Notes under the pieces: model-generated | Seen by the model: only the letters and a program-made list of their open reading frames with translations | The model's database searches: none | What the model was told of the DNA's origin: nothing | Origin: an uncultured Gammaproteobacteria bacterium | GTDB taxonomy: Bacteria; Patescibacteriota; Microgenomatia; Levybacterales; GWA1-39-11 | Direction: 5' to 3' | Assembly (NCBI GenBank): GCA_964537315.1 | Contig: CAZIAP010000002.1 | Location: 43,237-107,236, forward strand | Length of the DNA: 64,000 bases | In this document: positions 6,767 through 61,994 of the stretch, piece by piece | Layout of the letters: each line of letters begins with the position of its first letter | How positions within the stretch are numbered: position 1 is the stretch's first letter | Position numbers and translations under genes: made by a program

Positions 6767-6870
6767 ACAACTTTTACTAACATACTTGAAAAATATTAGT
6801 TGTTCAAAGTGTTAAAGATCTGACACCTTACTTCGACCTAAATATTAGAACTTTCTGATAAAATATACTC

Positions 6871-7260: not shown

Positions 7261-7288
7261 TAATCACTGTGTTATAAAACTTTAGATT

Positions 7289-39917: not shown

Positions 39918-42900
39918 ATGAAAGAACAATTGACACGCTCACCGAATCTAACGTACTCTAATAGTATGGAAGATAGTGGAGAAAAAAATATTTATCACGC
40001 GGAAGATAAAATTCAAGATAAGTCACCGAAAGTATCAAAGATTTCAAGAATAACTCAGCAAGAAGAAAAAGATAGGATTGATAAAATTATTAGTGGTGCT
40101 CCTGCATTACATCAAGAACCCTTACGGCAATCTCTTTACGAAGCATATTTTACAGCTTCATCCACCGAAGCAGAAGACTCTTCTCGTATAGACGAAATAA
40201 GAAAAGAACTTGATGAGACAGTTTCAGATTCCGACGAGAACAATGAAGATATTATGGAAAGATTGGGAAGAGCTGAACAAGAATTAGGGAGAAATCTTAA
40301 TGCTCAAGAAAAAGCAGCCATAATTGCAGCTCATAATGTGGGCGAAAATGAGCAGGGAAAAGACGGATCAGAGGCAGGAATAAATAACTATACATTTTCT
40401 CAGTTGAGAGAAAAAGCAAAAATTCTTAAAGGGGATGACGAGCAGAAAGGTTTTTCTAAAGAGGAAAGACGTAAATTGATGGAAGCAGGTATTGTGGGAG
40501 AGGAGAGAGATAAACAGGATTTGCGTAGTACACCTGAAAGGTTAGTTGAGTTAAGTGAAGCTCAACTTCGTGAGCAAGAAGCTATTAGAAAAAATACTGA
40601 TACTATGGTTCAGCAGCTAAGCGAATTACTAAGCATATCTGCAGAAGAACGAGATATACTGCGTAAACTTAGTGATGAACAAATGGAAAGGCTTATTCAA
40701 TCAATTGAGTTTAGCAAGACAACCTTTGAAGAATATATTGAAAAGTCAATTCGACAAGGACTTGACGATCCTAAAGAAAGAAAAACTAATGAAGTTGTAA
40801 TGGAAGCGATTAGTAAAGTAAGTGCAGAGGAGTATGAGACTTATCGTAATGCAGAATCAAAAGTAAGATCTGAGAGAAATCGTGTAATATTCTCATATGC
40901 CAATGCAGTGAAAGATAATTTTAAAGGAGGAGAATACCTAGAAGATGATGAATGGAGCGGAACTGTGGAAGAGTATATCAGGAGGGAAGTCGATCGGGTA
41001 GGAGAAGTACTAGATGATTTAGAAGATAAATTTATTAGTGGTGATTTAAACGATCTAGAAGTACAAAGAGAACTAAGGAATATTTCAAAAGATAGTGAGC
41101 GTATCCAAAACGAAGCAAATATTTTAGCAGGAATAGACCCTCAAGAAAGAAGAGGTAGAGGAAAAGCTGTTAAAAATATTGAAGAATTAATGAAATTTAT
41201 AATGGAGCTTCATCCGGATTACTCAGAAGAGGGTAACTATCCATTAATATACCCTCCTGAACATGAACAAGCAGGAGAAATTAATCAAGGAAATTTTATT
41301 CAGTGGATTCGCGACCAGTTGTCGCATTATCATAACCAAGACGCTGATAACCCACAGGTAAACTTTTTCGGTAATATCAGTGTGGAAGTTGAATCCCAAG
41401 GCTATACGAGAACTGTTAATGTTTTACAGATGATCAATAATCCCGGCGTATTTTTTAAGAGCAAAAACGGACATGTCTTGAATGGTTTGAGAGATGAAGT
41501 TGAGCGCACGATATGGCAATACTCAACAAATCGCAATAATAGAATTGCATATTTTCAGTCAATGCCTCTTGACACCAAAATTGCTGATGTTGTTGCGGCA
41601 ATCAACTCAAATAATGCACTCACAAAGCCTGCATATGAAGGCAAAAGTCCTCTCTACTGGAATTTGACTCAATCTGAAAGATATGAAAACGAGACTCGTT
41701 TGGATGCACGGGTAGGAGAGGGTATAGTTGCTGGAACGATGATTTATTATGACATTACTGATTACGAAGCTCTTAAAAAACGTTGTGCACCAATCAAAGA
41801 TGCTGAAGGAAAAGACGATGTTTCCCCTCTTTTTGATTTAAATAAAATAAAAGCAGCAGCACAGAGTATTTTGATCTCTAATAAAAGACCGGATTATGAT
41901 AAATACTTTACAGAAGACACCTGGGCTGAGATTAGTAGTTGGTTTGATGACAACGGAGTGTTAAAAGATGGAAGTGGAGATAAGTGGATCAAGTTTTTTA
42001 ATCCTTATGAACCACAACAAGACACAAGGAAGCTCGAATTACTTCGCGCATTAATTGCTGAAGAGATCTCTAGAAGAACCGGTCTGAATAGTAATGCCGC
42101 AAAATATGCCGAGCAGTGGGCACAGTTTCAAATTGATTTCATGTTGATATCAGCTCGAGGTGGTGTAGGAGCTGCTGCGTATAACGGGGCTGAAAAAGGA
42201 CTTCGAATGCTTGAATATTATGAGCGTGCATGGAGTGATACTAAACCAGGTTTGGGTAACCCAAAAGCTTTAGGTTTACTTGTTGCGCCTGGAGTTGATT
42301 TTCTCATCGGCACTCAAGTTAGATCTTCAGAGTTTAAATTAGCGGAGGTAAGTAAGGCAACAGATTCTAAAGGAAACTTTAACAAAGTCAATATTGTAGA
42401 ATTTGATGAAAAGGGTGAACCGGTTAAGGTAAGCCATACACTTAAAGATAACCAAGAGGTACTTTACGTAGGTAGTAAAATTATTTCGAGCAAAACAAAA
42501 GGGGAGATAATCAGCTTCGAGGAACGAGAAAAAATTGCGGCATTTACCTTATTGGACGACAAAGAAGAAATTTTAGAAAATGCTGAAGTAAAAGAAAATG
42601 CTAATACTGGAGAGTTCACAGTATTCGTGAATGGTCAAGAATATAAATCGTACAAACCAAGCGAAGAAGATGGAAAATATACAAATCATTACGAATTGGT
42701 TGGGGAAAGAAAATATAAGATTACGAAACGTGAATGGCATTTTGATGATGCGCTTGGACTCAATACTAAGGATAAAAGAGTGGTTGTAGAAGTTGATGAG
42801 CAAGGAAACAGACGTTACTTAGGAGAGTTAAAAGAAAATGAGAGGGTAGATCTAGGAGGAAATACACTTAAGTCAATGCAAGAGGTGAGGGTACGGGAGA

Positions 42901-44105
42901 AAGTTTTTATTGGAGGACAGTTAGCCTACACACTTAAAGATGGAGAAAGCACAGAGCAATCTGGAGATCAAATATGGATTATAAAAGACGGAAAAGTAAT
43001 TAAAAAGTTATGGGCAAGGATTAATAAAGATGGAAATTCTTATAAAAGAGAAATTCAACATGTTGACGTACGATATACTACCGTGAACGGTGAAGAAACA
43101 GCGGTGGAAGGTGCAATCCAAACGCATAAAACAACTAATTTAGATAACTCAGAGATTAAAATTAAGAAAGAAAGAGTGATTGAAGAGTGGCGTGAGCATC
43201 AGCTTTCTACCTATGATGTATTACAACATATGGACGAAACTCGATCGGAGTGGCAAGAACGTATTAATCAAGCAACCACGAAGGAGGAAAAGGATCGTCT
43301 TAGAAAGGAAGCGGATGATAAAGTTCAATATTGGGCATTAAAGCTTGAGTGGGGGTCAGATGAACAACGTCAGTTTGCGCAAAATCAGTTTGGTCGGGCA
43401 ATGCAACTTTTTCATGAGTATGGGCAAAAATTTGTAATCGATCCTAGAAGCCTATATAGCTACGATGAAAAAAAGGGGTTTGTATTTGATCAAGGAAAGC
43501 TCCAAGAAGAGATTGGTGAAAAGCTTATAAAACCTAGACGTTATGCATTTAGAACATGGCCTCATCTTGACATGAGTAGGATTGTCAGAGCTCCAGATCC
43601 AGAAAACAAATTTGAATATAGAGAGATGTTTTTGGCTGAAGCAATTTTCGGCAGACAAGTCCTTGAAACATTTCGTAGAAAAGACGGTACGATTGACTTT
43701 GAATTTTTAAGTAGTAGAGACGGAATAAAAGAGTTGATAAAAACTGAGGCATTACTTAGGTTGGCTGCAGATGAAATGTATTTTGAAGATCTCGACATGC
43801 TTACACCAAGGCTCGGCTTACAGGCTAAGTTAGCATACCGTAAAGGTATATTTACTCTTTCTGATGGAATTTCGATTGACTATAGAAACGTAAAGAACAA
43901 TAAGGTGAGTAATGGGTTTTTCGGAGCCCGTAAAATTTCTTTTAATGAATATGGACCTTCATTTGAGCAGGTTTATAACAAAGCTACTGGAGCTTCACCA
44001 CTCTCCATAATACGAAAAGAAACACAAAATGCAGTGCTTTTTCAGGGGTTCAGAGGAGTTTTTGATGCTGTAAAGGAAGTAGTCGGATCAGCATTTAAAT
44101 CATAA
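39918..44105 (+). CDS. Giant hypothetical protein (1395 aa), highly charged (E/K/D/R-rich), coiled-coil-prone N-half. No TM, no recognisable catalytic motif.
   Basis: Single uninterrupted 4.2-kb ORF. The N-terminal 450 aa are dominated by E/K/R/D heptad-like stretches. I see no Walker motifs or HUH relaxase motif. Confidence 0.6.
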   Translation: MKEQLTRSPNLTYSNSMEDSGEKNIYHAEDKIQDKSPKVSKISRITQQEEKDRIDKIISGAPALHQEPLRQSLYEAYFTASSTEAEDSSRIDEIRKELDETVSDSDENNEDIMERLGRAEQELGRNLNAQEKAAIIAAHNVGENEQGKDGSEAGINNYTFSQLREKAKILKGDDEQKGFSKEERRKLMEAGIVGEERDKQDLRSTPERLVELSEAQLREQEAIRKNTDTMVQQLSELLSISAEERDILRKLSDEQMERLIQSIEFSKTTFEEYIEKSIRQGLDDPKERKTNEVVMEAISKVSAEEYETYRNAESKVRSERNRVIFSYANAVKDNFKGGEYLEDDEWSGTVEEYIRREVDRVGEVLDDLEDKFISGDLNDLEVQRELRNISKDSERIQNEANILAGIDPQERRGRGKAVKNIEELMKFIMELHPDYSEEGNYPLIYPPEHEQAGEINQGNFIQWIRDQLSHYHNQDADNPQVNFFGNISVEVESQGYTRTVNVLQMINNPGVFFKSKNGHVLNGLRDEVERTIWQYSTNRNNRIAYFQSMPLDTKIADVVAAINSNNALTKPAYEGKSPLYWNLTQSERYENETRLDARVGEGIVAGTMIYYDITDYEALKKRCAPIKDAEGKDDVSPLFDLNKIKAAAQSILISNKRPDYDKYFTEDTWAEISSWFDDNGVLKDGSGDKWIKFFNPYEPQQDTRKLELLRALIAEEISRRTGLNSNAAKYAEQWAQFQIDFMLISARGGVGAAAYNGAEKGLRMLEYYERAWSDTKPGLGNPKALGLLVAPGVDFLIGTQVRSSEFKLAEVSKATDSKGNFNKVNIVEFDEKGEPVKVSHTLKDNQEVLYVGSKIISSKTKGEIISFEEREKIAAFTLLDDKEEILENAEVKENANTGEFTVFVNGQEYKSYKPSEEDGKYTNHYELVGERKYKITKREWHFDDALGLNTKDKRVVVEVDEQGNRRYLGELKENERVDLGGNTLKSMQEVRVREKVFIGGQLAYTLKDGESTEQSGDQIWIIKDGKVIKKLWARINKDGNSYKREIQHVDVRYTTVNGEETAVEGAIQTHKTTNLDNSEIKIKKERVIEEWREHQLSTYDVLQHMDETRSEWQERINQATTKEEKDRLRKEADDKVQYWALKLEWGSDEQRQFAQNQFGRAMQLFHEYGQKFVIDPRSLYSYDEKKGFVFDQGKLQEEIGEKLIKPRRYAFRTWPHLDMSRIVRAPDPENKFEYREMFLAEAIFGRQVLETFRRKDGTIDFEFLSSRDGIKELIKTEALLRLAADEMYFEDLDMLTPRLGLQAKLAYRKGIFTLSDGISIDYRNVKNNKVSNGFFGARKISFNEYGPSFEQVYNKATGASPLSIIRKETQNAVLFQGFRGVFDAVKEVVGSAFKS

Positions 44106-44140
44106 TTATAAATGAACTTCTTATTCTGACCATTTCTTCT

Positions 44141-45844
44141 CTAACTATTTTCTTGACCCTGATTAGTTTCTCGTTGTCGTCTTGCTCTTTGTTCTGCATT
44201 GTATTGTGCTTCTAACCGTTGAGCCTCAATTCTCTCTTGTGCATCTCTTCTCATCTGTCCAATTTTTCCTCCAACGGGTCCGCGAGACCAGAACTGCTCT
44301 AAGCGAGGACGAACATTCCCTCTCCATATAATTGCGCCCGTTCCTTTTGGATTACCATTTGCATCAGTTTCAAAAAGCTTGCTACCAACCTTTTTAGGTA
44401 TAGCAGAAGCTGCAGATGAACCAACTCCGAATGCTGCTCCAACAGCTCGTTGGTACGAAACGGTTGGAGCTTTAAGCGTATCTTTAACCATATTTACAAC
44501 TTCTGTAGTCATTAACAAAACAGCAATGCCTATTAATGCGCTAAAATATTTAGGATTAATTGCTCCACCAATAAAAGGAGGAGTGAAGTGATCAGCTCCT
44601 CCTCCGCTGAACATCTGTGCAAACACAGAACCGAGCAGGAACATAAAAAGTGTTACCGGAAAAACTGCAATATAGGCAAAAATATGCTTAAACCAAGACC
44701 CTGCATTGAGAGGTGAACCAGGGATAAGACTGCCAGCAATCCAAATGGGGGCAACAACTGTATCAATAAGTATAAATAAGTATGCTTTTAACAATAAGAA
44801 CCAGAGTCTTAACAATGCATAGAGAAGTGCAAAAGTTATAATGAAAAATGCTATTGTACCTCCTAATACGCCAATTAGATCATATGGTGAAAAAGATCTA
44901 TATATCGGTACATCAATTCCGGTAACTCTCTCTATCGCATAAAATGGCGCTGTAGCAGGGTTTAGCAAATTAAAAGCATCGGTAAATATTTGTCCAAAAA
45001 ATGTTTCAGCTACGCTTCCCTCAAGAATGCTGGTAATTATATGTCCAATTTCAAATGATGCGTTTTTAACAATATCAAAACCTCCAAAAAATCCTAGAAC
45101 TCCAAAGGGAGTTTGACCCTGTATTTTTGTCGGATCTAAGCTAGAAAGATTCGCTCCAGTTCCAAGCATAATTTGATAAAAAAGATACATAAAAAGATAC
45201 ATAATATCTATTAAAAATCCTGATATGGCGTATGAAAATGTAATTAAAATTAATACAATTACTGCTTTTGGAATCGCGTTCTGAATTGTCATTACGGACC
45301 TTGGATCAATATTAAATCTGAAAATTATTCCGATCCCCATAATCATGAAAATGATTACAAACAATACATAAATTATGTTTCTAAATGCTGTCCACGTGGC
45401 AAGAAGTGGATTTAATGCTCTAAAGCCATGTCCTTCTTGTGCATATGTTGATTTTATGACCCCGAAGTTGGAAGCAGTGTGTTGAATGTATTGACCGGTA
45501 TTAATAGGTACATCAAAAGTCCAAGCAATCATACTACCTACAGCTCCAATCGCACCTCCTCCATTTTCCACAAATCCGATTTGTCCTGACTTTGGATCAA
45601 CTCCCAGACATTTAGTCGATGGGTTTACCGGATCGACACCTGTTAGCTGGCAGGAAATTGCCGCCATTACTTCAATCAGAACCATCTGTGTATGAGTACC
45701 GTAATTTTGAGGAACGTCGCTGTTTACACGCCCAGGTAAAGCACTAGAAGTGGCTGTAGTAGCTGGTGCTTGAGCAAAAATTACCGGGGCTGAAAAGTTC
45801 AGGAAAAAAGCGACGAAAAACAGCACGGCGAGCAGGCGTTTCAT
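44141..45844 (-). CDS. VirB6/TrbL-like polytopic membrane protein
   Basis: Signal peptide (MKRLLAVLFFVAFFLNFSAPVIFA), an extracytoplasmic segment, at least 6 TM helices (IIYVLFVIIFMIMGIGIIF; IVLILITFSYAISGFLIDIMYLF...), and a C-terminal cytoplasmic charged tail (QRARRQRETNQGQENS). This architecture and its locus context fit VirB6/TrbL. Start at ATG 45844; the track's 45898 is a TTG. Confidence 0.5.
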   Translation of the reverse strand: MKRLLAVLFFVAFFLNFSAPVIFAQAPATTATSSALPGRVNSDVPQNYGTHTQMVLIEVMAAISCQLTGVDPVNPSTKCLGVDPKSGQIGFVENGGGAIGAVGSMIAWTFDVPINTGQYIQHTASNFGVIKSTYAQEGHGFRALNPLLATWTAFRNIIYVLFVIIFMIMGIGIIFRFNIDPRSVMTIQNAIPKAVIVLILITFSYAISGFLIDIMYLFMYLFYQIMLGTGANLSSLDPTKIQGQTPFGVLGFFGGFDIVKNASFEIGHIITSILEGSVAETFFGQIFTDAFNLLNPATAPFYAIERVTGIDVPIYRSFSPYDLIGVLGGTIAFFIITFALLYALLRLWFLLLKAYLFILIDTVVAPIWIAGSLIPGSPLNAGSWFKHIFAYIAVFPVTLFMFLLGSVFAQMFSGGGADHFTPPFIGGAINPKYFSALIGIAVLLMTTEVVNMVKDTLKAPTVSYQRAVGAAFGVGSSAASAIPKKVGSKLFETDANGNPKGTGAIIWRGNVRPRLEQFWSRGPVGGKIGQMRRDAQERIEAQRLEAQYNAEQRARRQRETNQGQENS

Positions 45845-45906
45845 ATATATACAGTATGGGGGAATATTTGATACAAAGTCAACTTTTTTAAGCTTCAAAT
45901 TAGCTG

Positions 45907-46862: not shown

Positions 46863-47318
46863 ATGCACTGTCCGTACTGTAATCATACCGGTTCTGAAGT
46901 CGTAGAAACTCGGGTAGGAGAGGAAGGGTCCAATATCCGGAGAAGGCGGTTATGTTCTGAGTGCAATAAACGGTTCACTACCTATGAGCGGATTGAAGGG
47001 GTTACTCTAATTGTTCGCAAGCGGGATGGTAAACGTGAGCAATTTAGTAGAGAAAAATTAAAAATAGGACTTATTAAATCCTGTGAAAAAACCACAGTGT
47101 CTCTGCAGGAAATAGAAGAAGTAGTCGCAAGTATTGAACGAGAGTTGAGATGCGGCGACTCACTGGAAGTAGAGAGTCAGCAGATTGGTAGAATGGTAGC
47201 AGATCAGCTGAAGAAAAAGAATAAGCTGGCATATATAAGATTCGCCAGCGTGTTTAAGAATTTTGTAGATATTGATGATTTTGCACAAGAATTGAAAATT
47301 TTAGATAAAAGCAATTAA
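46863..47318 (+). CDS. nrdR: Transcriptional repressor NrdR
   Basis: MHCPYCNHTGSEVVETRVGEEGSNIRRRRLCSECNKRFTTYERIE is the zinc ribbon. The ATP-cone follows (RDGKREQFSREKLKIGLIKSC). Confidence 0.9.
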   Translation: MHCPYCNHTGSEVVETRVGEEGSNIRRRRLCSECNKRFTTYERIEGVTLIVRKRDGKREQFSREKLKIGLIKSCEKTTVSLQEIEEVVASIERELRCGDSLEVESQQIGRMVADQLKKKNKLAYIRFASVFKNFVDIDDFAQELKILDKSN

Positions 47319-47324: not shown

Positions 47325-49775
47325 ATGAAATTAGACGGAATCAGACAAAAAGTATTTTTAGACCGCTACGCTTTAAAAGATAAAGACGGTAGTCTGCTTG
47401 AGCATACTCCTGAAGAGATGTGGAAGCGCGTCGCGCGAGGGGTCTCCCAAACCGAGGACAAAAATGTTAGATCTCATTGGAGAAAAGAGTTCTATCGGGT
47501 AATGGAAGATTTCAAGTTTGTTCCTGCAGGACGTATTTTGTCAGGAGCGGGTACAGGTTACCAGGTAACTTACTTTAATTGTTTTGTCATTCCTTCCCCA
47601 CAAGACTCTCGTCACGGTATTTTGGAAGCACTCGGGCAATTAGTAGAAATTCAAGCTCGCTCAGGAGGAGTTGGATTAAATCTCTCATCACTTCGTCCAA
47701 AAGGTGCGCGTGTTAAAAAAGTAAATGGAACTTCATCAGGTCCTGTGAACTGGGCGACTCTTTTCTCAGTTGCGACGCACGATATTGTTCAGCAAGGCGG
47801 AAGCCGTCGAGGTGCAACAATGCTTATGCTGTGGGATTGGCATCCAGATGTGGAAGAGTTCATCACAGTAAAACAAGACCTTACCAAAATAAACGGAGCA
47901 AATCTTTCAGTATGTATCTCAGATGCCTTTATGGAAGCTGTTAAAAATGATGCTGATTGGGAGCTAGTGTATCCTGACCTCGATGACCCTAAATATGACT
48001 CACATTGGAATGGCGATATCGTTGAGTGGCGCAAGCTCGGTGGAAAAGTAAATCTACACAAGACAGTAAAAGCACGCGAGCTATGGAATTTGATCTGTGA
48101 AGCTGCTTGGAGAAGCGCTGAGCCAGGACTTCATTTTATGGACAGATCAAACAAACGGTCAAACACTTGGTATTTTGAGCGACTTATTGCTACAAATCCT
48201 TGTGGAGAGCAGCCACTGGGAGGTTGGGCTGTGTGTAACTTAGGTGCGATGAATTTGTCAGCTTACGTTACCGGGTATGACGCGGATAATCCTGGAAAAT
48301 TTGACTACAAATCATTTGCGGCAGATGTAAAAGTTGCAATGAGGTTGCTTGATAACGTAATCGATCAGACGTACTACTTTTTCCCCGAAAATGAGAAATG
48401 CGCAAAAGAAATTCGCAGAACAGGTTTGGGAATTATGGGACTTGGTGATGCGCTGATAAAAATGAATCTTGCTTATGGTTCTGAAGAATCACTTCCGATA
48501 ATTGAAAAAATATTCAAGACGCTTCGTGACAGCGCGTACGATGCTTCAAGTGATATCGCAAAAGAAAAAGGATCCTTCCCTAAGTTTGAGAAAGAACAAT
48601 ATCTCAAAGGATATCACATCAAAGAGCTACCTAAAGAACTACAAAAGAAAATAGAAAAACAAGGTATTCGTAATGCTGTCCTCTTGACTATTGCCCCAAC
48701 AGGTACGACATCATTAGTGTCAGGAGTTAGTTCTGGAGTAGAGCCGGTTTATGAGTTTGCTTTCAAAAGACGATGGAGAGGCGGAGAGGACATGATGTAT
48801 CATCCTCTCTATGAAGAATGGCTCAAAGCTCATCCGGGAGAAGAAAAACCAAAATATTTTGTGTCTGCAAACGATCTGACACCTGAAGAACATGTAAAAG
48901 TACAGGCCGTTGCCCAAAAATATATTGACTCCTCAATTTCAAAGACTGTAAATGCTCCAAAAACACATAGTGTCGAAGATGTTAAAAAGCTATATATGAT
49001 GGCATATGACCATGGTCTTAAAGGCATTACTTATATGAGAGACGGGTCAAGACAAGGAGTATTGGAACGAGTAGAGGAAAAGAAAGAAGAACAGAAGGAG
49101 CAGCCGGTTATGACACTGCGAAAAAGACCTCCTGTGATGGTCGGTTCGACTTACGAAACGGAAACACCTTTCGGTCACTCATTCATAACAATCAATTCTG
49201 ATAAAGAAGGGAATCCATTTGAGGTATTCATCAATTCAGGTAAATCAGGATCAGACGTTATGGCAATGTCTGAGGCGTTAGGACGAATTATCTCAATGGT
49301 GCTTCGCATGCAAAGTCCGATTGCTCATAGAGAAAGAATACGACAAATTGTTGGTCAACTATCAGGAATTGGTGGAGCTCGAACTGTAGGCTTTGGTATT
49401 AACAGAGTAAGATCTATGCCTGATGCTTTGGCAAAGGTACTTGCAGAACACTTTAGCTTTAAAGTCAATGGAAAAGTAGTTGACGCCGCACTTCGCCAAG
49501 GCTCCGAGGGGCAAGTAGTTAAACATCCAGAACAAGAGAAATCTGATGTAAAAGGTAATGGATCTAATGGAAACGGACATGGTTTGTCACTTAACGGACA
49601 CTCCGCACCAGTTCAAGCAGATGCTGTACCTCAAACGACTGTGATGCAGCAAATGACACTTCCTCAAGACGACACAAGACAACTATTTGATATCTGCCCT
49701 GAATGTGGTGGAGCATCTCTTGCAAGAGAAGAAGGCTGCAAGAAATGTTATGCCTGTGGGTACGCAGAGTGTTAA
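47325..49775 (+). CDS. nrdJ: Class II (adenosylcobalamin-dependent) ribonucleotide reductase NrdJ with a C-terminal zinc ribbon
   Basis: ...RLIATNPCGEQPLGGWAVCNLGAMNL... is the class II active-site cysteine motif. Length 816 aa. C-terminal CPECGG...CKKCYACGYAEC. Confidence 0.9.
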   Translation: MKLDGIRQKVFLDRYALKDKDGSLLEHTPEEMWKRVARGVSQTEDKNVRSHWRKEFYRVMEDFKFVPAGRILSGAGTGYQVTYFNCFVIPSPQDSRHGILEALGQLVEIQARSGGVGLNLSSLRPKGARVKKVNGTSSGPVNWATLFSVATHDIVQQGGSRRGATMLMLWDWHPDVEEFITVKQDLTKINGANLSVCISDAFMEAVKNDADWELVYPDLDDPKYDSHWNGDIVEWRKLGGKVNLHKTVKARELWNLICEAAWRSAEPGLHFMDRSNKRSNTWYFERLIATNPCGEQPLGGWAVCNLGAMNLSAYVTGYDADNPGKFDYKSFAADVKVAMRLLDNVIDQTYYFFPENEKCAKEIRRTGLGIMGLGDALIKMNLAYGSEESLPIIEKIFKTLRDSAYDASSDIAKEKGSFPKFEKEQYLKGYHIKELPKELQKKIEKQGIRNAVLLTIAPTGTTSLVSGVSSGVEPVYEFAFKRRWRGGEDMMYHPLYEEWLKAHPGEEKPKYFVSANDLTPEEHVKVQAVAQKYIDSSISKTVNAPKTHSVEDVKKLYMMAYDHGLKGITYMRDGSRQGVLERVEEKKEEQKEQPVMTLRKRPPVMVGSTYETETPFGHSFITINSDKEGNPFEVFINSGKSGSDVMAMSEALGRIISMVLRMQSPIAHRERIRQIVGQLSGIGGARTVGFGINRVRSMPDALAKVLAEHFSFKVNGKVVDAALRQGSEGQVVKHPEQEKSDVKGNGSNGNGHGLSLNGHSAPVQADAVPQTTVMQQMTLPQDDTRQLFDICPECGGASLAREEGCKKCYACGYAEC

Positions 49776-49819
49776 GCTAGCAAGTGGCATATAGCATATA
49801 GCTAATAGTCATGGTAAAA

Positions 49820-49950
49820 ATTAAAGTATTGTATAGGTAAGAAGGGTGAAAGTCCCTCTCAGAGCCGCTACTGTAAAGACAGAAAACTATACATTATTAC
49901 TCCTTCCCGAGCTTGGAAAAACCAATAATCTCGAGAAGCATTTTAAATTA
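49820..49950 (+). promoter_or_regulatory. Candidate cobalamin (B12) riboswitch in the 5' leader of the adenosyltransferase operon
   Basis: AAGAAGGGTGAAAGTCCCTCTCAGAGCCGCTACTGTAAAG at 49840-49880 matches the conserved riboswitch core (AAxxGGGAA..GGTGAAAxTCC....C.G.CCCGCCACTGTAA). The 190-nt leader and the downstream B12-metabolism gene are consistent with it. The boundaries are approximate. Confidence 0.5.
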
Positions 49951-49967
49951 AAAGGTTTAAGTCTATC

Positions 49968-50519
49968 ATGCCGATCTATACAAAAACAGGAGATAGAGGT
50001 AAAACGTCATTACGTACGGGTAGCCGCATTTGGAAAGATTCTATACGAGTTGAAGCGTATGGAAGCATTGATGAGCTGAATTCATATATAGGAGTAGTTA
50101 TTTCAACGCTCGGAGAGCCAAAGCGTGGATGGAAAAAGTACCTACAAACACAGTTACTATCAATTCAAGGTGACTTGTTATTTATAGGATCATCACTTGC
50201 TAAAAGCGAAGTGATGCTGGATAGGCTTGATCCTAATACTAAAAAATTTGAGGAACAAATTGATACGATGACAGAAAAACTCCCAGAATTGAGTAATTTT
50301 ATTCTTCCAGGCGGAAATCCTGTTGGGTCACATCTGCAATATGCCCGAACACTGGTCAGAAGAGCAGAAAGGAGAGTAGTTACTCTTGCAAAAACTGAAA
50401 AAGTAGATGATTCACTAATACGTTACATTAATAGGTTATCAGATCTATTTTTTACCATGTCGCGGTTTGCAAATTTTAAGGAAAAGAAAAGTGAAGTAGT
50501 TTGGGCCCCCTTTAAGTAG
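49968..50519 (+). CDS. pduO: Cob(I)alamin adenosyltransferase, PduO/MMAB type
   Basis: MPIYTKTGDRGKTSLRTGSRIWKDSIRVEAYGSIDELNSYIGVV...ILPGGNPVGSHLQYARTLVRRAERRVV is the canonical PduO-type ATR N-terminal signature. Confidence 0.85.
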   Translation: MPIYTKTGDRGKTSLRTGSRIWKDSIRVEAYGSIDELNSYIGVVISTLGEPKRGWKKYLQTQLLSIQGDLLFIGSSLAKSEVMLDRLDPNTKKFEEQIDTMTEKLPELSNFILPGGNPVGSHLQYARTLVRRAERRVVTLAKTEKVDDSLIRYINRLSDLFFTMSRFANFKEKKSEVVWAPFK

Positions 50520-50524
50520 GACAT

Positions 50525-51763
50525 ATGGAAAACAGAGCATACATACCCCAAGAGGCGTATCAAAATTATCTACAAGGTGTTCCAGCTGAGCAGAGGGACA
50601 ATTTATATTCAATAGAGCCGAGGGTAGAAAAGTCTATAAAAGTAGTGCAGTACGAGCTAGACTTTGATAGACAGCAAGCAAGGGAAATCTTAAGGAGTAG
50701 GGGAGATGAAGATTTTGAGAGCAGAGTAGAGAACTTTAAATCTTTTACTGAAATGCAGTTACTTACGGCTTTAGGGGAAAGATTTAATAGAGGACTAAGT
50801 CGCTACTCATACCGTACGGAAGATGGAGTTTTGTATGGTGAACATAGTGATGAACCTTTTCTTGATGTTTTAGAAAGGGGTAGAGCATACCGGGAAATAT
50901 ATGGAAATCCTGTTGATCATTCCCGTGAAGAGGCAGAAGTAAGAGGTTTTAAAAAAATCCAGGATGTTTTGGGTAACCCAGATACTCCTCCTGGTACTAT
51001 TGCGGTCTCAGTGTCACCTCCAGGGGGTGAGGGGTCTATATATAAACATAACTTTTATGACGGTTTTCAAAAAAAGGAAGACGGGAGTATTGAAGTGGTT
51101 CGGTTTAGTAACGCATTAAGTGCAGAAGAAACAATTGATAGACTAAAAGAGCTGGATCCTCAAATCAACACTCCAGAACAACTAACAGATGTTAATTTGC
51201 TTTCAAACCCTATTATCCTATCTAAAGAGATTGGACAAGAATTGACCTTAGATAAAATACATACTCATCTTCACAAAGATCATGACGTAATGAGTGAAAA
51301 AGATTTTGCAGTAGTACAGGAGATGTGTGCTTTTCTTATGGTAAGTTACATAAACTCTCTTTTGGAAGATCCTGAGGATTATAATAAACATGCCAGGTTA
51401 TATAACGCTTTACTAAATAAGGCGGATGAAGTTTCCGACTCTCTAAAAGAGAGTAGAGATATTGCGGTAATTAAGTCATCTGCTGATATGACAGAACAAG
51501 AGATATATTATCTTGGCAATCAATCTGTTAGATCAGTAGATACAGGGTGCGGATATTCAGGAGGAGCAGAAATCATGAACGGAGGAGAAACCGCACTAGG
51601 TGTTTATTCAGTCATGTCGTTTGGAGGAGTAGAAGATAAGTACGGTTCATTAAAGTTTAAGTGTCCTCATTGTAACTATGAAAATACTCGCCCTTACGGA
51701 AAGCTGATTGAAAGGTGTGGGGATGGTCAATCAAGTGGATGTAAAAAAAGCGTTCGTTGCTAA
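50525..51763 (+). CDS. Hypothetical 412-aa protein with a C-terminal zinc ribbon, co-operonic with pduO
   Basis: Starts 5 nt after the pduO stop. Ends ...KFKCPHCNYENTRPYGKLIERCGDGQSSGCKKSVRC. No recognised domain. Confidence 0.45.
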   Translation: MENRAYIPQEAYQNYLQGVPAEQRDNLYSIEPRVEKSIKVVQYELDFDRQQAREILRSRGDEDFESRVENFKSFTEMQLLTALGERFNRGLSRYSYRTEDGVLYGEHSDEPFLDVLERGRAYREIYGNPVDHSREEAEVRGFKKIQDVLGNPDTPPGTIAVSVSPPGGEGSIYKHNFYDGFQKKEDGSIEVVRFSNALSAEETIDRLKELDPQINTPEQLTDVNLLSNPIILSKEIGQELTLDKIHTHLHKDHDVMSEKDFAVVQEMCAFLMVSYINSLLEDPEDYNKHARLYNALLNKADEVSDSLKESRDIAVIKSSADMTEQEIYYLGNQSVRSVDTGCGYSGGAEIMNGGETALGVYSVMSFGGVEDKYGSLKFKCPHCNYENTRPYGKLIERCGDGQSSGCKKSVRC

Positions 51764-51769
51764 GCGGAT

Positions 51770-51928
51770 ATGAAAAATTTAAATGATTCAAATAAAAATT
51801 GTGATGATTGTTTTAAAATTATTTGCAAATTATGCAATTGGGAACCCGATGATAATGAAGTAGAGGCTATACAGAGTGGAGTACTTCAAAATTGTCCTGA
51901 CTGCGGATGGAGTCCTAGAGTATCGTGA
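51770..51928 (+). CDS. Small Cys-rich zinc-ribbon protein (52 aa), below the ORF-track size cutoff
   Basis: MKNLNDSNKNCDDCFKIICKLCNWEPDDNEVEAIQSGVLQNCPDCGWSPRVS has CxxC...CxxC pairs. It starts 7 nt after the previous stop. Confidence 0.3.
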   Translation: MKNLNDSNKNCDDCFKIICKLCNWEPDDNEVEAIQSGVLQNCPDCGWSPRVS

Positions 51929-52055: not shown

Positions 52056-52787
52056 ATGTGGAAAACTCTGGTAAACCTCATCTTTCCTAAGTACTGTGTG
52101 CAGTGTAAGCGAATAGGAAATTACATTTGTGATAACTGTTTTTCTTACATTCGCTTTGATCCTACTCCGATTTGTCCCAAGTGTAATAAGCAATCGATTG
52201 AGGGCGCGACCCATCCAAGGTGTCGTACTCTTTATAGTATTGATGGGCTCGTCTCAGCAGTTGTATATACCGGAGTGATAAAGCGACTTGTGCATCAATA
52301 TAAATATAATCCGTATGTATCTGACCTTAGAGATGACATTGGAAGATTAATGTGTGAGAGCTTGGAACAAAATGAAATATTTTTTAACTTTCTCAAAGAC
52401 AAACCAGTGCTTATACCTGTTCCACTCCATCCGATGAGACTTTCTAGAAGGGGATATAATCACTCATGGCTTCTCTGCTCTTATGTCGCACAATATTTCA
52501 AGCAAGAAGTAAATAATGATGTGTTAGTAAGAACACGCAACACAAAACCACAGTTTAAGCTCTCAAAAAATGATCGATACTCTAATGTCAAAGATGCATT
52601 TAAAATTCAAGAGAGTCAGAAGAAGACTGTTAAAGGAAGAACAATATTAATAATAGACGATATTGCGACTACCTGCTCTACTCTGGGAGAAATCGCTAAA
52701 GTACTAAAACGCAATGGTGCAAAAAGTGTTTGGGGGGTAGTCTTTGCAAGAGAAGAATTAACGAGGACAAAAGTAGGACGGGTTTAG
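52056..52787 (+). CDS. comF: ComF-family phosphoribosyltransferase-domain protein
   Basis: N-terminal Cys4 zinc finger (CVQCKR...CDNC...CPKCNK). C-terminal PRTase motif RTILIIDDIATTCSTL. Confidence 0.7.
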   Translation: MWKTLVNLIFPKYCVQCKRIGNYICDNCFSYIRFDPTPICPKCNKQSIEGATHPRCRTLYSIDGLVSAVVYTGVIKRLVHQYKYNPYVSDLRDDIGRLMCESLEQNEIFFNFLKDKPVLIPVPLHPMRLSRRGYNHSWLLCSYVAQYFKQEVNNDVLVRTRNTKPQFKLSKNDRYSNVKDAFKIQESQKKTVKGRTILIIDDIATTCSTLGEIAKVLKRNGAKSVWGVVFAREELTRTKVGRV

Positions 52788-52817
52788 GGTGTAGATTAAA
52801 TCAGGTATAATGAGTTC

Positions 52818-53258
52818 ATGAGAATTGTTAATAAACAACTAAATCGAAATTATGCCGTTATCGAAAGGATAGAGAGCGGTATTGCCTTATTGGGATCAGA
52901 AGTAAAGGCTGTGCGTACGAATCATGCAAGCCTCGACGGCTCTCATGTGCGTATTTTAGATGGACAAGCATACCTAGTCAATGCAAAAATCTTTCCATAT
53001 AAGTTCTCGCGTACAGAGAACTATAATGAATCGAGAAGCCGAAAGTTATTATTACATAGAAAGGAACTAACAGCGCTCAAATCTCGGCTCGATCAAGGTA
53101 ACTTTACACTTGTACCTGTTGCACTCTACCTTAAAAACAATCGGATTAAACTAGAAATCGCGTTAGTAAAAGGGAAGGCACAACACGAAAAACGCCGTGA
53201 ATTACGCAAGAAAGCAATTGACCGTGATATAGAGCGAGAATTGAAAAAATGGTCATAA
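52818..53258 (+). CDS. smpB: SsrA-binding protein SmpB
   Basis: NRNYAVIERIESGIALLGSEVKAVR...LLLHRKELTALKSRLDQGNFTLVPVALYLKNNRIKLEIALVKGK is canonical SmpB. Confidence 0.9.
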   Translation: MRIVNKQLNRNYAVIERIESGIALLGSEVKAVRTNHASLDGSHVRILDGQAYLVNAKIFPYKFSRTENYNESRSRKLLLHRKELTALKSRLDQGNFTLVPVALYLKNNRIKLEIALVKGKAQHEKRRELRKKAIDRDIERELKKWS

Positions 53259-53281
53259 TTTGCTATAATATAGGATATCTT

Positions 53282-53695
53282 GGGGATGTATTGTATCGAC
53301 AAGAATAGTACATTAAAAACTGCAAGCCGGCTTTGAATCGTAGCCGTAAAACAGGTTCAAACCTTACATGCTGATGGAACAACCATCCGCCGCAAGGTTC
53401 AGCGGTTCGCTGCTGACCTTATGCCGTCAACAGGACTTCGTCCTGCGATGGCATTCGCTGCTTAATAAGCGCGAGCTGTCTGTAATGTCTTTTCTCAACG
53501 GGGCGTCTCAGGCAAAAACTTAGTTGAGAAAAAGGTAAAGAGGCTGGTCTTCTTTTTATCATTTTTTTGACCTTAGTTATATCTTCGGATGTCGGTTTTC
53601 GTTCGGATATGATGAATTTCAATAATCGACTACGCTTGTAGATGTTTTTAACGCACCTTCTTTGGACGAGGGTTCATTACCCTCCATCTCCACCA
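53282..53695 (+). ncRNA. ssrA: tmRNA (ssrA), one-piece, directly downstream of smpB
   Basis: 5' GGGGAUG pairs with 3' CAUCUCC-A-CCA, with a G3.U wobble (the Ala identity element). T-arm GAGGGTTCATTACCCTCC. The internal tag frame ...GCT GCT GAC CTT ATG CCG TCA ACA GGA CTT CGT CCT GCG ATG GCA TTC GCT GCT TAA TAA encodes (A)ADLMPSTGLRPAMAFAA ending in a double stop. The minus-strand ORF 53419-53622 inside it is spurious. Confidence 0.85.
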
Positions 53696-58737: not shown

Positions 58738-58811
58738 GGTGCGCCTGCTTGGGATCGAACCAAGGACATCTACTTTATAAGAGTAGTGCTCTACCACTGA
58801 GCTACAGGCGC
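58738..58811 (-). tRNA. tRNA-Ile with anticodon UAU (reads AUA)
   Basis: Reverse complement GCGCCUG-UA-GCUC-AGUGGUA-GAGC-A-CUACU-CUUAUAA-AGUAG-AUGUC-CUUGG-UUCGAUC-CCAAG-CAGGCGC-A-CC gives a full cloverleaf. The anticodon loop CUUAUAA places UAU at positions 34-36. CC is encoded. Confidence 0.8.
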
Positions 58812-58857: not shown

Positions 58858-61260
58858 CTAGATATTTTTCTTTAATTGAGATTCAGAGCCTGTATCTCCG
58901 ATATCACCTAGTACCTCAAAAAGCCTAGATCTTTTAGCAATTTCTGCTTCAACTAGTTCTACAGGACGACCATATTTTAGCCTGGACAACTCTCTAACGA
59001 GTTCTGTTACACGTGGGTTTTCAAGCTTTTTCTCAGCCTCAATATCGCGGGTCAAGTTGAGTGAAAATGGAGGAACAGGTTCTTCATTAATCTGAGTTTT
59101 TACATAGGCGTGGTAGCGTTCTACGTTAATTAAATCACCTTCAGTTATGTTAGGCTGGAACTCGTGTTGTAGATAGTTTGCGTCGGTAACACCTACACGG
59201 AAAGATACTATTGTTCCGACATTACCAAATATCGCATTTTTTATATCCTCGTCCATCTGTCCAATAAACTGGTTCGCTACCGTTAAGTTAAGCCTGTATT
59301 TTCTGGCTTCTGACAGAATGGTCGCAAAATCCGGTGTGGCAAAATTCTGAAACTCATCTACGTACAGGTAAAAGTCTTTTCTCTGTTCTTGAGGGATATC
59401 TTGGCGACTCATGGCTGCACTCAGAAGTTTTGGAACTAATAAAAGACCTAAGAAAGCAGAGTTTTCTTCACCAATCTTTCCTTTGGCAAGTGATACGAAT
59501 AAGATTTTTTTGTTATCCATTACATCTCGGAAATTAAATGCGCTTTCGCTTTGTCCGATCATATTTCTCATCATCTTATTAGTAACGAAGCGGCCGAATT
59601 TAGAAACAATGTAATCCAACACTTCAGACTTATGGAAGTCAGAAGTTTGCGCAATTTGATCAGTCCAGTAGCGGCGAACCATTGGGTCGTTTACTTTCGG
59701 CAATAGCTCTTGTACAAATGACGGGTCGGTCAGAACGCGCACAACTTCAATAAAGGTATTTCCTTTTTCTGCCATAACTGTTAGCATTGCATTCCTAACC
59801 GCGTGTTCAAAACGAGGTCCTATGATACCGGTTTGGTGAGGATCAAAAAGTTTTCCCATCAGTCCGATGACGGAGGCAACAATAAAGTGTTTTTGCTCTT
59901 CAGTTGATGCCTCAAGCATATTCAACCCCATAGGGCGTATAGTATCTGAAGGGTCAAAGATTATGACATCTTCTGCTCTCTCAGGTGGAATTAATGGTAG
60001 TATCTGATCAATTGTATCGTGCGGATCTATGAAACAAACACCTTCACCGTTACGAATATCTTGCAATATCATATCTTTAAGAAACTCAGATTTTCCAACA
60101 CCTGTTTTACCGATAATATACATGTGACGTCTACGGTCAGTTTGCTGAAGATAAATAGGTTTTGTTATTCCTCGATAAATACTTTTACCGATATATAGAC
60201 CTGTGGTTGGTACGTTGGCAGGAGCAGGTGCGAGACGTGCTCTCATCCAATTAATAGCTGGAGAGTCAACGCTTTTATTAGGGAAATGAAAAATTGTTGC
60301 AAGCTCCTGCGTGTTAAGAACTGAACCGGATCCCCAGAGTGGCAAATGACGATAAATAAAATCAACCATGAAGAAACTTTTTGTCCAGCGCATCTTATCT
60401 TTTGTAAATGAGTTATAGCCTGAAAACTGAGTAAAAGCACTGACAATATTACCAAGATGTGCGTCAGCTGATTCCTCAGTTGAGGATACTGCTACGAGTC
60501 GGATATAAGTAGTAAAAGCTGCTTTGGTCATTTTTTGGTCAACAGCCTCTAGCTCTTTTTGATCAACGGAATATTTTGCTGTTTCAGGATCTGCTTCTTG
60601 TTTTTTAGTTGACGAGATAAATGCTCTCCCGCCAGACTTCCATACAGAGTCAGCCGGAGTGATAATAAGCTGGATAGCAGCTGCTTCACCATCTTGCATT
60701 TTTCCTAGTGTGCTGGCAAAAGTTGATAAAGGATCAACGGGCAAATCTTGGTATGTGCGAATAGGTTTGTAGTCAGGTTCATCTAGTTTTAAAGATGCAT
60801 ATGCAACCTTTCCGTCAGGGTTATCAAAAATGTTATATTCTTCTACCTGTTCAATTTGTGCATCAGGGTAGGATCCGTGAATTTGTTTTTCAACCATATC
60901 TAAAAGCTTTTTCGGTACACTCACGTAAAACCTAATATCTTGAGGTCTCGCTACGATCTCAAATGTAATTGAATCGGGAATTTTGAAAAACTTAAACTTA
61001 CCTTTTGCCGACTTAATACTGGCAAAGCTTGCAAACATTTGCTCTGCAGCATCAATTTTTATCTCATTATCCCGCGGAAGCTTGATCTCAAGATGTGCCA
61101 TGTTTAATGCTTTTTCATGTCTGGTTTTATTTTTGCGCCAAAGACCATATAGAAACGCCAGACCGGAACAAAAAGCAACGATTGTCGAAACGATTATAAA
61201 GGCCAAGATTAGAGAAATCAGAGTATCAACTGCAGAATTAATCATAGTGTCAGGCTGCAT
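58858..61260 (-). CDS. Type IV coupling protein-like ATPase (TraG/TraD/VirD4 / FtsK-HerA superfamily) with N-terminal membrane anchor
   Basis: N-terminal TM hairpin (LISLILAFIIVSTIVAFCSGLAFLYGLW). Walker A MYIIGKTGVGKSEFLK, Walker B DFYLYVDEFQNFAT, followed by ...LNLTVANQFIGQ... Start taken at ATG 61260, preceded by AAAGGAGGAAA at 9-nt spacing. The track's 61281 is a TTG. Confidence 0.55.
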   Translation of the reverse strand: MQPDTMINSAVDTLISLILAFIIVSTIVAFCSGLAFLYGLWRKNKTRHEKALNMAHLEIKLPRDNEIKIDAAEQMFASFASIKSAKGKFKFFKIPDSITFEIVARPQDIRFYVSVPKKLLDMVEKQIHGSYPDAQIEQVEEYNIFDNPDGKVAYASLKLDEPDYKPIRTYQDLPVDPLSTFASTLGKMQDGEAAAIQLIITPADSVWKSGGRAFISSTKKQEADPETAKYSVDQKELEAVDQKMTKAAFTTYIRLVAVSSTEESADAHLGNIVSAFTQFSGYNSFTKDKMRWTKSFFMVDFIYRHLPLWGSGSVLNTQELATIFHFPNKSVDSPAINWMRARLAPAPANVPTTGLYIGKSIYRGITKPIYLQQTDRRRHMYIIGKTGVGKSEFLKDMILQDIRNGEGVCFIDPHDTIDQILPLIPPERAEDVIIFDPSDTIRPMGLNMLEASTEEQKHFIVASVIGLMGKLFDPHQTGIIGPRFEHAVRNAMLTVMAEKGNTFIEVVRVLTDPSFVQELLPKVNDPMVRRYWTDQIAQTSDFHKSEVLDYIVSKFGRFVTNKMMRNMIGQSESAFNFRDVMDNKKILFVSLAKGKIGEENSAFLGLLLVPKLLSAAMSRQDIPQEQRKDFYLYVDEFQNFATPDFATILSEARKYRLNLTVANQFIGQMDEDIKNAIFGNVGTIVSFRVGVTDANYLQHEFQPNITEGDLINVERYHAYVKTQINEEPVPPFSLNLTRDIEAEKKLENPRVTELVRELSRLKYGRPVELVEAEIAKRSRLFEVLGDIGDTGSESQLKKNI

Positions 61261-61792
61261 TCGGTATTTCCTCCTTTTCAATTGGTGTGTTCCTTAATTT
61301 TTCATCATTATTGGTAGAGATATTACTGTTCATATGAGGATGATAGTCCACGTGCTTTTTCAGCGGAAGAGAAGACACTTCTTCGTGTCCGACAAATTTG
61401 TCAGGGGATGACGTGCTACCATACTCTCTATCTATTAATACGCTTTTGACCACATTTTTAAACGCATCAAATATTGGTTCAATCGAAAGATGGTAAACCC
61501 CTTTTGGGTGGTTCTCAATCGGGTCAACATGTGAGTGCGGGTGTGGATGTAGATGCCCGTTAACTTGTTCCTCGCTTCGTGGATCTGGATTATCGGAGAC
61601 CCCCAAATCTTCCGGATCGCATGCAACTTCGTGTTCGTAGCCTGGGTGAGCTTCAGCCAATGCTTTTTTAATCCCTTCCAATTGGTCTTGATGGTCTACA
61701 GTATCGAATCCGGCATTTATAACTTCGGGATCTAGTCGAGGAAACTTGTTATATTGTCCTGAATTGTCTAAAAAATCTTTAACTTCGCTCAT
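61250..61792 (-). CDS. Hypothetical His-rich acidic protein
   Basis: 180 aa with HLHPHPHSHVDPIENHPKG and many His/Asp/Glu residues. The 11-nt overlap with the downstream ATPase gene suggests co-transcription. Confidence 0.4.
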   Translation of the reverse strand: MSEVKDFLDNSGQYNKFPRLDPEVINAGFDTVDHQDQLEGIKKALAEAHPGYEHEVACDPEDLGVSDNPDPRSEEQVNGHLHPHPHSHVDPIENHPKGVYHLSIEPIFDAFKNVVKSVLIDREYGSTSSPDKFVGHEEVSSLPLKKHVDYHPHMNSNISTNNDEKLRNTPIEKEEIPNAA

Positions 61793-61906: not shown

Positions 61907-61994
61907 GGAGGAGTCGCATAGCACGGTCCATTGCGGGGGATTGCTAATCCCCTGAGCCGCAAGGCTCGCGCAGGTTCGAATCCTGTCTCCTCCG
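61907..61994 (+). tRNA. tRNA-Ser (anticodon GCU), class II with long variable arm
   Basis: GGAGGAG-UC-GCA-UAGCACGGUCCAU-UGC-G-GGGGA-UUGCUAA-UCCCC-UGAGCCGCAAGGCUCGC-GCAGG-UUCGAAU-CCUGU-CUCCUCC-G. It has a 3-bp D-stem, a 17-nt variable arm and anticodon GCU. CCA is not encoded. Confidence 0.85.

Follow-up and report, generated by a model that had tools for sequence, protein, structure and literature searches.

We analyzed a 64,000-nucleotide stretch of contig CAZIAP010000002.1 (assembly GCA_964537315.1), hereafter the window, from a bacterium of the order Levybacterales in the Candidate Phyla Radiation (CPR), with focus on the genes that follow nrdJ, which encodes a class II ribonucleotide reductase (RNR) dependent on adenosylcobalamin (AdoCbl). 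Between 46.8 and 52 kb of the window, the genes nrdR, nrdJ and pduO, an open reading frame (ORF) whose 412 amino acid product we call F412 and a small ORF encoding the 52 amino acid protein Zn52 all lie on the plus strand, and the spacer between nrdJ and pduO holds a riboswitch (Table 1). PduO makes AdoCbl from cob(I)alamin and ATP, and AdoCbl is the cofactor of NrdJ. The region is best explained as an operon extension that responds to B12 and lies behind nrdJ, composed of a class-II cobalamin riboswitch, pduO, F412 and Zn52. The riboswitch and pduO are further members of known families; the new component is F412, which represents an undescribed family: neither Pfam nor NCBIfam has a model for it, none of its relatives has a solved structure, and no source annotates it.

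Table 1. Features of the nrdR-nrdJ-pduO-F412-Zn52 region (positions are those of the window; RBS, ribosome-binding site).
Feature	Position	Strand	Description
nrdR	46863–47318	+	Zn-ribbon/ATP-cone repressor; PF22811, PF03477; TIGR00244, 186 bits
nrdJ	47325–49775	+	AdoCbl-dependent class II RNR; PF02867, PF00317, PF12637
NrdJ C-terminal Cys-rich Zn-finger tail	49690–49772	+	Six Cys, CPEC-x10-CKKCYAC-x4-C, final residue Cys; read from the translation
nrdJ-pduO spacer			192 nt; holds the riboswitch and the expression platform
Class-II cobalamin riboswitch aptamer	49818–49897	+	P1/P3 stack, P4, P5, P6, B12 box; L5 is AGCCG at 49863–49867
Expression platform	49898–49967	+	Putative RBS AAAAGG at 49950–49955; no terminator hairpin
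P13 hairpin	49904–49918	+	UUCC / loop CGAGCUU (49908–49914) / GGAA; L13 pairs with L5
pduO	49968–50519	+	PduO-type ATP:cob(I)alamin adenosyltransferase, 183 aa
F412 ORF	50525–51763	+	412 aa; begins 5 nt past the pduO stop, with AGGA ahead
F412 residues 335–347	51527–51565	+	VRxVxTGCGxSGG β-hairpin, Cys342-Gly343 at the tip
F412 C-terminal Zn ribbon	51662–51760	+	C380, C383, C398, C406 and terminal Cys412
Zn52 ORF	51770–51928	+	52 aa, six Cys

A preliminary description of this stretch, made from its letters without database searches, had recognized a cobalamin-riboswitch core in the leader of pduO and had proposed a covariance-model scan with the class I family RF00174. The two core motifs that it quoted are present, GGTGAAAGTCC at 49845–49855 and GCCGCTACTGTAAAG at 49864–49878, and the riboswitch is real, although RF00174 is not its best model. 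When the whole window was scanned against all Rfam families, the sole riboswitch match was a significant one to RF01689 (AdoCbl-II, clan CL00101), with a score of 38.1 bits that lies narrowly above the gathering score of 36.5, covering model positions 1–81 (E = 1.8e-5 in the scan of the window and 9.7e-8 in a local search). The outcome that the preliminary description had named as refuting it, a scan without significant hit, did not occur. A class I identity was rejected because RF01689 outscored the overlapping matches of its clan and because the aptamer spans 80 nt with a plain P6 hairpin. With class-II riboswitches such as env8HyCbl it shares the compact four-way junction without the large class-I periphery, the conserved L4, L6 and B12-box sequences and the short J1/13 linker. 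The window aptamer has no internal loop J1/3, in whose place there is a U-U mismatch.

Since the margin over the Rfam threshold was narrow, the structure was tested on relatives. Homologous spacers of related loci match RF01689 at 39–57.5 bits, and in 11 relatives the core helices P3–P6 are 92.6% paired, with changes on both sides in 12 of 16 pairs; none of 500 shuffles reached the observed level, and slid partners were 31–42% paired. An aptamer model built from 11 relatives (model R1) scores the window aptamer at 84.1 bits and gave 89 matches in 84 sources, all of them on the F412 strand. Many relatives carry large insertions in P4/P6, up to about 300 nt long (seen in L009 at 5170–5330, L090 at 2207–2330, L071 at 4570–4900, L067 at 4650–4960 and L082 at 4459–4720, L numbers designating individual loci), some of which consist of short repeat-like units (CGCTAAA in L071); as a result of these insertions, the aptamers drop below the Rfam threshold.

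A P13 hairpin follows the aptamer by 5–10 nt in every leader, with the loop CGAGCA in the relatives, and apart from one unpaired A its loop L13 is complementary to L5 (UGCCG; AGCCG in the window). Across 14 sequences this L5-L13 kissing loop is 98.6% paired, and most relatives have U:A as its outer pair, where the window, L003a, L069a and L092 have A:U. All four pairs of the P13 stem covary, the variants including UUCC/GGAA, CCUU/AAGG, UCCC/GGGA and UUUU/AAAA. A published account of the RF01689 family (PMC5028336) describes a kissing loop between L5 and L13 that depends on the ligand and is broken by unpaired purines, and the window and its relatives share this loop together with the unpaired purine.

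In the relatives, the common expression platform consists of P13 followed by a hairpin (e.g., uccuuCUCGggaGAGAAGGA), a U run and the start codon. The RBS forms the 3′ arm of this hairpin, whose 5′ arm and loop can base-pair with the 5′ half of P13 (CCCGAG). Among 70 distinct platforms, 55 have a U run and a start codon beyond the hairpin region, the hairpin is clear in 35, and in 31 the 5′ half of P13 has an exact complement. The ligand-free minimum free energy (MFE) fold of L019 is the antiterminator, a long alternative helix. We propose that in these relatives the long alternative helix would form in the absence of ligand, and that upon ligand binding the kissing loop would lock P13 and free the hairpin, which would act both as an intrinsic terminator and as a sequester of the RBS. 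Since such a ligand-freed hairpin is found in most relatives, cobalamin would turn the genes off; the leader sequences imply OFF-type platforms in most relatives, an implication that does not cover the switch of the window itself. It should be noted that in env8 the RBS is located in L13, whereas most of the leaders described here have a second level of control, with P13 competing against an antiterminator on which the terminator/RBS hairpin depends; in L027, L028, L033 and L085 the start codon lies 3–7 nt after P13, as in env8. In the MFE fold of the window platform, CUUCCCGAG (49903–49911) is able to pair alternatively with CUCGAGAAG (49930–49938), and no ligand-dependent change at the window RBS was found from the alternative pairings of this platform. 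The platform is identical to that of L090 (2330–2410) at 69 of 70 positions, while the compared DNA stretches of nrdJ, pduO and F412 are 83%, 87% and 69% identical between the two genomes, which argues that the platform is under strong constraint.

Profile searches bear out the assignments proposed earlier for the genes on both sides of the switch. PduO matches PF01923 (E = 1.7e-54; 184.9 bits against a cut-off of 24) with residues 3–167 aligned to profile positions 1–170 of 171, and matches TIGR00636 over its full length (177.6 bits, cut-off 108.45), while NrdJ passes the equivalog model TIGR02504 (NrdJ_Z) with 596.4 bits against a cut-off of 399.95. We regard it as practically certain that both the riboswitch and pduO are real. 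The adenosyltransferase is of the same family as the N-terminal domain of Salmonella PduO and human MMAB, and as in those cases it stands beside an AdoCbl-dependent enzyme; here, however, the partner is NrdJ rather than diol dehydratase or methylmalonyl-CoA mutase, and the next gene encodes F412 rather than a known reductase or chaperone. The Cys pattern of the NrdJ tail is close to that of the Cys-rich domain (CRD) reported by Loderer et al. (2017), two gaps differing by one residue (PMC5704485). In class II RNRs, electrons reach the active site through this tail, which mediates turnover; in the enzyme studied, the CRD is reduced by neither thioredoxin nor glutaredoxin, and its physiological reductant is unknown (PMC5704485).

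To place F412 in its genomic context, loci were gathered by exact-protein look-ups, from 12 species genomes and from 67 metagenome contigs. Neighboring genes were labelled by BLAST against reference proteins and aptamers were found with nhmmer and model R1, three insertion-rich aptamers being checked by eye; locus counts refer to 74 non-redundant loci. A riboswitch is placed to control F412 in 65 of the 74, and in 46 it lies directly upstream of this gene. Nineteen loci have the arrangement of the window, with the aptamer ahead of pduO and F412, and 11 have one aptamer before pduO or before DUF4430-DUF6580-pduO plus a second one directly before F412. The aptamer stands between pduO and F412 in a further eight loci, where the sequence upstream of pduO is present and contains none, and in seven where that sequence lies beyond the contig. 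In 20 loci the aptamer precedes F412 with no adjacent pduO, 18 of which have unrelated neighbors and neither nrdJ nor pduO found on the fetched stretch. No aptamer was found in nine loci, of which five have at most 80 nt of upstream sequence and one has 183 nt. Three individual loci show degraded or truncated arrangements: in L081 (159–1774), pduO is at the contig edge and F412 is split by a frameshift, with no aptamer found; L043 (42–2550) has leuS, a 5′-truncated pduO and F412, without aptamer; and in L017 (5816–5840; Curtissbacteria) the aptamer is reduced to a remnant of the L5/P6 core.

No other gene in these loci is B12-regulated as consistently as F412, whose tie to the B12 riboswitch is more consistent than that of pduO. 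We therefore consider it very probable that F412 is a member of the B12 regulon, and the cautious suggestion of the preliminary description that the protein belongs to B12 handling gains much stronger support from these counts. The coupling to pduO seen in the window is also found elsewhere: the two genes are co-transcribed in 30 loci, and where gene calls were inspected their junction is a gap of 3–5 nt or an overlap, with 51 nt in L006. The pair persists through changing flanks, with comF or a DUF8128 ATPase downstream, or with DUF4430-DUF6580 inserted upstream. The synteny nrdR-nrdJ-(pduO)-F412 is widespread, and L037 has nrdJ, a riboswitch and F412 without pduO.

Some relatives have, beside pduO, a riboswitch-controlled pair of genes encoding DUF4430, a transcobalamin-like domain, and the membrane protein DUF6580 (separate ORFs in L003 at 6363–7242, L005 at 6402–7336, L013 at 1865–2831 and L069 at 1308–2212). 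This is probably a B12 uptake pair; a literature search on DUF4430 with cobalamin found nothing mechanistic. The preliminary description took the organism to salvage B12 rather than make it, which may be so; on this point, what the 64-kb window shows is limited to the absence of cob/cbi and B12 transporter genes within it, and it contains no copy of DUF4430 or DUF6580 either.

The aptamers themselves fall into two groups according to their position. Those before pduO or DUF4430 have AAAA(C) at J6/3 in 21 of 22 cases, and those immediately ahead of F412 carry, for the most part, A[G/U]CC(C) at J6/3 together with a GGGUGAA 5′ junction. The two groups are paralogous subtypes. Both subtypes occur within one operon in L003, L005, L013, L033, L045, L056, L076 and others. 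The ligand choice of class-II riboswitches ranges from selectivity for methylcobalamin (MeCbl) or hydroxocobalamin to selectivity for AdoCbl, and its determinant is the contact between J1/3 and J6/3 (PMC6158498). Since this contact sets AdoCbl/MeCbl selectivity, the two subtypes of one operon may sense different corrinoid forms.

The 412 amino acid protein had been called unassignable, and our searches agree. As a single sequence it has no match in Pfam, NCBIfam or the sequences of the PDB. Pfam scans of each of the 41 members of alignment A1 found no family match, ten further long members scanned for informative fusions had none, and the profile of the 41 members against the PDB gave only weak, non-significant matches to the eL43/L37ae zinc ribbon (E 0.07–1.1). 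A word-indexed search with F412 returned 43 relatives, all hypothetical, the named ones being Candidatus Levybacteria, and a word-indexed search with a 146-member profile returned unannotated proteins only, one of them mislabelled L37AE/L43A because of its ribbon. An exhaustive profile search showed the family to be large, with 589 clusters at 50% identity, of which 307 fall below 1e-30; the metagenome scan was seeded with the narrower alignment A3, since A2 proved too diverse. Among species representatives the family extends to Curtissbacteria, the named members are all CPR (Levybacteria and Curtissbacteria), and member lengths range from 320 to 450 amino acids.

In 184 members, the near-invariant positions are E85, R86, G119, R134, E135, E138, S164, Y173, N176, F177, D179, R193, C342 and G343. 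The Cys342-Gly343 pair is kept in 98% and 97% of these members, respectively, C342 being invariant in alignment A2. The tail of F412 has five Cys, and the ribbon Cys columns are conserved in 91–96% or more of the sequences, the last residue, C412, in at least 90%. We obtained two AlphaFold2 models, one from 41 sequences with a predicted local distance difference test (pLDDT) score of 83.5 and one from 146 sequences with a pLDDT of 89.4 and a predicted template modelling score (pTM) of 0.77. They predict, in order, two N-terminal helices, the core, a helical region, the Cys342 hairpin, a floppy linker and the ribbon, with a disordered N-terminus. The core (about residues 90–196) is predicted to be an antiparallel alpha/beta unit of two strands, two helices and three strands with a five-stranded sheet, and the hairpin strands 338–340 and 343–345 are present in both models. 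Foldseek searches with the two models against the PDB, plus BFVD, returned nothing at E ≤ 0.001; the weak top matches are mainly PAS, Cache and LuxR-type ligand-binding domains.

Several specific identities for F412 were considered and rejected. The protein has no hydrophobic or transmembrane segment (maximum KD19 of 1.46, family median 0.99), and a surface or periplasmic B12 binder of the BtuF or DUF4430 type was dismissed because there is neither a membrane anchor nor a family match. A CblC/MMACHC-like protein was rejected for want of any Pfam match in the 41 A1 and ten long members, and for neither model do the 50 best Foldseek matches listed from the PDB include a CblC chain. Glycyl-radical enzymes have as their hallmark R-[IVT]-[CSA]-G-Y near the C-terminus, a ten-stranded barrel and an activase. 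A glycyl-radical enzyme or class III RNR had come into consideration through the TGCGY motif and the ribbon, and it was rejected because the family motif is T-G-C-G-x with no Arg in register, the predicted fold is not a barrel and members match no PFL/NrdD-type family. No radical-SAM gene was found in the loci with precomputed Pfam hits, and in the other loci most neighbors are unannotated.

The small CxxC...CxxC protein behind F412, which the preliminary description had listed as part of the same module, proves to be a conserved partner. When about 750 kb of loci were searched in all six frames with an HMM profile of Zn52, whose Cys pattern is CxxC-x4-CxxC...CPxC, 12 copies in nine lineages were identified, all of them immediately after F412. 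Zn52 has no family match in Pfam or NCBIfam, and a database search returned one homologue. Rubredoxin was rejected as its identity, since only sub-threshold zinc-finger or rubrerythrin-like fragments matched and the likeness to rubredoxin ends with the CxxC...CPxC spacing. Four other lineages have, in the place that Zn52 would take behind F412, an unrelated Cys-rich protein, DUF5522 (PF17653, GYCCxxxCxxCPY; L006 at 9241–9420, L045 at 6235–6393, L056 at 6130–6285 and L076 at 6210–6398). Zn52 is a real protein and, in some of the lineages, an accessory companion of F412.

Taken together, these results tip the balance, if only slightly, towards a role of F412 in the supply path of AdoCbl. We place it there because it is coupled to pduO in 30 loci, because its invariant polar residues line a domain of ligand-binding type, because it combines an invariant Cys with a Zn-ribbon/terminal-Cys arm, and because two alternative small Cys proteins fill the next slot. 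The explanation that we consider best overall, tentatively and with slightly more doubt than belief, is that F412 is a soluble cobalamin-handling factor acting just before PduO. In this scheme, imported cobalamin would be captured by cytoplasmic F412 in a PAS-like pocket lined by E85, R86, R134, E135, E138, S164, Y173, N176, D179 and R193. Cys342 would then remove the upper ligand and/or reduce the cobalt and would be regenerated by the tail with its Zn ribbon and terminal Cys412. Zn52 or DUF5522 would assist as partners in redox or metal chemistry, and F412 would pass cob(II)alamin on to PduO. Such a specific thiol/redox hand-off is the more doubtful part of the proposal.

The closest functional parallels lie in the human and Pdu-type systems. 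CblC (MMACHC) and CblD (MMADHC) are soluble cytosolic proteins that take imported cobalamin and remove its upper ligand by thiol/flavin chemistry; CblD forms a Co-S bond, and the human pathway passes cobalamin to the PduO-type enzyme MMAB. Both have nitroreductase-like folds and no Zn ribbon. The likeness of F412 to CblC and CblD thus concerns the proposed role only, sequence and fold matches being absent. With PduS and CobR, F412 would share the delivery of electrons to PduO-bound cob(II)alamin and does share genomic coupling to an adenosyltransferase. F412 matches neither the family of PduS, an Fe-S flavoprotein, nor that of CobR, a flavin reductase, and no flavin or Fe-S motif was identified in it. 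The tails of class II RNRs offer a further comparison, as the CRD and the F412 tail are both C-terminal Zn-binding CxxC...CxxC ribbons that end in an extra Cys; the F412 tail, however, has five Cys instead of the six of the CRD, in another spacing, and its partner Cys would be Cys342 in the body of the protein.

A number of observations weigh against a role in AdoCbl supply. The window platform is without the 5′ arm of a terminator. Cobalamin binding by F412 is putative; the thiol relay is modelled by analogy on RNR tails, and direct comparison of the NrdJ and F412 tails gave no significant similarity. The PAS-like resemblance is not significant either (best E = 0.03, probability 0.21, TM-score below 0.3). 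A canonical Rossmann-like B12-binding domain (DxHxxG...SxL...GG) was rejected, since there is no PF02310 match and no DxHxxG motif, and the only His-rich stretch, at H250/H253, is not conserved across the family. Nor does F412 resemble CblC, CblD, PduS, CobR or BtuF, either in sequence or in fold. In addition, F412 is under a switch in eight loci where nrdJ and pduO are unregulated, and in the 20 loci mentioned above it is not beside pduO. Both arrangements fit a factor that is needed only when B12 is scarce, which includes a B12-independent bypass.

Such a bypass is the main rival explanation: F412 would be a B12-independent backup that is repressed by B12, supplying or sparing the product when B12 is scarce and NrdJ is idle, for instance by deoxynucleotide salvage or processing. 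Its logic would be that of metE or of the nrdAB/nrdDG isozymes, genes that are off when cobalamin is available, and the canonical platforms, predicted to be OFF switches, agree with it, as do the loci that regulate F412 alone and the resemblance of its invariant charged residues to an enzyme active site. By eye, ORFs resembling a 5′(3′)-deoxyribonucleotidase and a dTMP-kinase-type P-loop protein adjoin F412 on the opposite strand in L025 (1298–2511, minus strand). However, unlike those isozymes F412 is co-transcribed with pduO, in the tight arrangement described above, and translational coupling of a B12-using gene with its own bypass is not normal. F412 also cannot be an RNR, being far below RNR size and having no barrel and no activase nearby, and it resembles no known salvage enzyme. 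For these reasons we judge the bypass unlikely. A service to NrdJ itself, as the reductant of its Cys-rich tail or as a chaperone that loads or repairs AdoCbl, is less probable still. It would account for the synteny with nrdJ, including that of L037, and for the pairing of a tail that thioredoxin and glutaredoxin fail to reduce in the enzyme studied (PMC5704485) with a protein that has a comparable Zn-ribbon/terminal-Cys tail and an invariant Cys. A reductant of NrdJ would nevertheless be expected when B12 is present, the condition under which canonical switches would repress F412; moreover, 18 loci have neither nrdJ nor pduO on the fetched stretch, and the two tails show no significant similarity.

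We give an equally low probability to F412 being a ligand-sensing regulator, with a PAS-like sensor and a nucleic-acid-binding Zn ribbon, that would exert additional control over B12 or nucleotide metabolism. The weak fold matches are mainly to sensors (TraR, LasR, RhlR, SdiA, PYP/FAST, LOV, Cache and PAS-B), a weak resemblance links the C-terminal ribbon to that of eL43/L37ae, which binds rRNA, and the neighboring NrdR is itself a Zn-ribbon regulator. Yet all fold matches of F412 are non-significant, its invariant Glu, Arg, Ser, Tyr, Asn, Asp and Cys with the terminal Cys look catalytic rather than DNA-binding, and translational coupling to an enzyme such as PduO would be unusual for a regulator. 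Finally, F412 could be an unrelated CPR gene that inherited the slot behind pduO by chance, the window aptamer being a decaying relic. Part of the synteny could indeed reflect shared ancestry within one order, and the window aptamer, at 1.6 bits above the Rfam threshold, has lost its terminator. Against this, F412 has its own aptamer in 46 loci, non-syntenic contexts included; in sequence, the aptamers before F412 make up a subtype of their own; a compensatory change has preserved the kissing-loop pair in the window's lineage; and the near-identity of the window platform with that of L090 contrasts with coding DNA that is 83–87% identical. Chance association is extremely improbable, and we exclude a mere hitch-hiker because of the independent F412 aptamers.

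The genes around the block bear on its history. The conserved block has the order DUF5667-nrdR-nrdJ, with nrdR called as its first gene. In the window, nrdR-nrdJ is flanked at 39918–45898 by genes for a membrane protein of about 500–585 amino acids and for a protein of about 1390 amino acids, both without family assignment, and the same two proteins flank F412 directly in loci without nrdJ and pduO (compared in L017, 7190–12852). The shared flanking genes suggest an ancestral neighborhood from which nrdJ-pduO was lost or moved. Downstream of Zn52 lie comF, smpB and tmRNA (118 bits; window 52056–53695). Further on, the window contains a DUF8128/TrwB-like ATPase gene (58858–61281, minus strand) and two tRNAs (58740–58811, minus strand, and 61907–61994, plus strand), one of them with a long variable arm.

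Time and again, missing steps of corrinoid uptake and processing have come to light through B12 riboswitch regulons. The regulon described here is compact and well supported: it comprises a consumer (nrdJ), an activator (pduO), sometimes the transporter-like pair DUF4430/DUF6580, and F412, a family of no known relatives or fold. Our literature search found no paper linking CPR/Patescibacteria with cobalamin riboswitches. If F412 acts in AdoCbl supply, it might constitute a new class of cobalamin-processing protein, a non-homologous bacterial counterpart of the human CblC/CblD step with Zn52 and DUF5522 as dedicated partners, an outcome that we consider possible but do not expect. Since F412 stands beside an NrdJ whose Cys-rich tail lacks a known reductant, the family could also bear on that question. 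The ultra-small cells of the CPR appear to be without known cobalamin reductases or decyanases, and F412 is a candidate for how these minimal cells prepare scavenged B12 for adenosylation.

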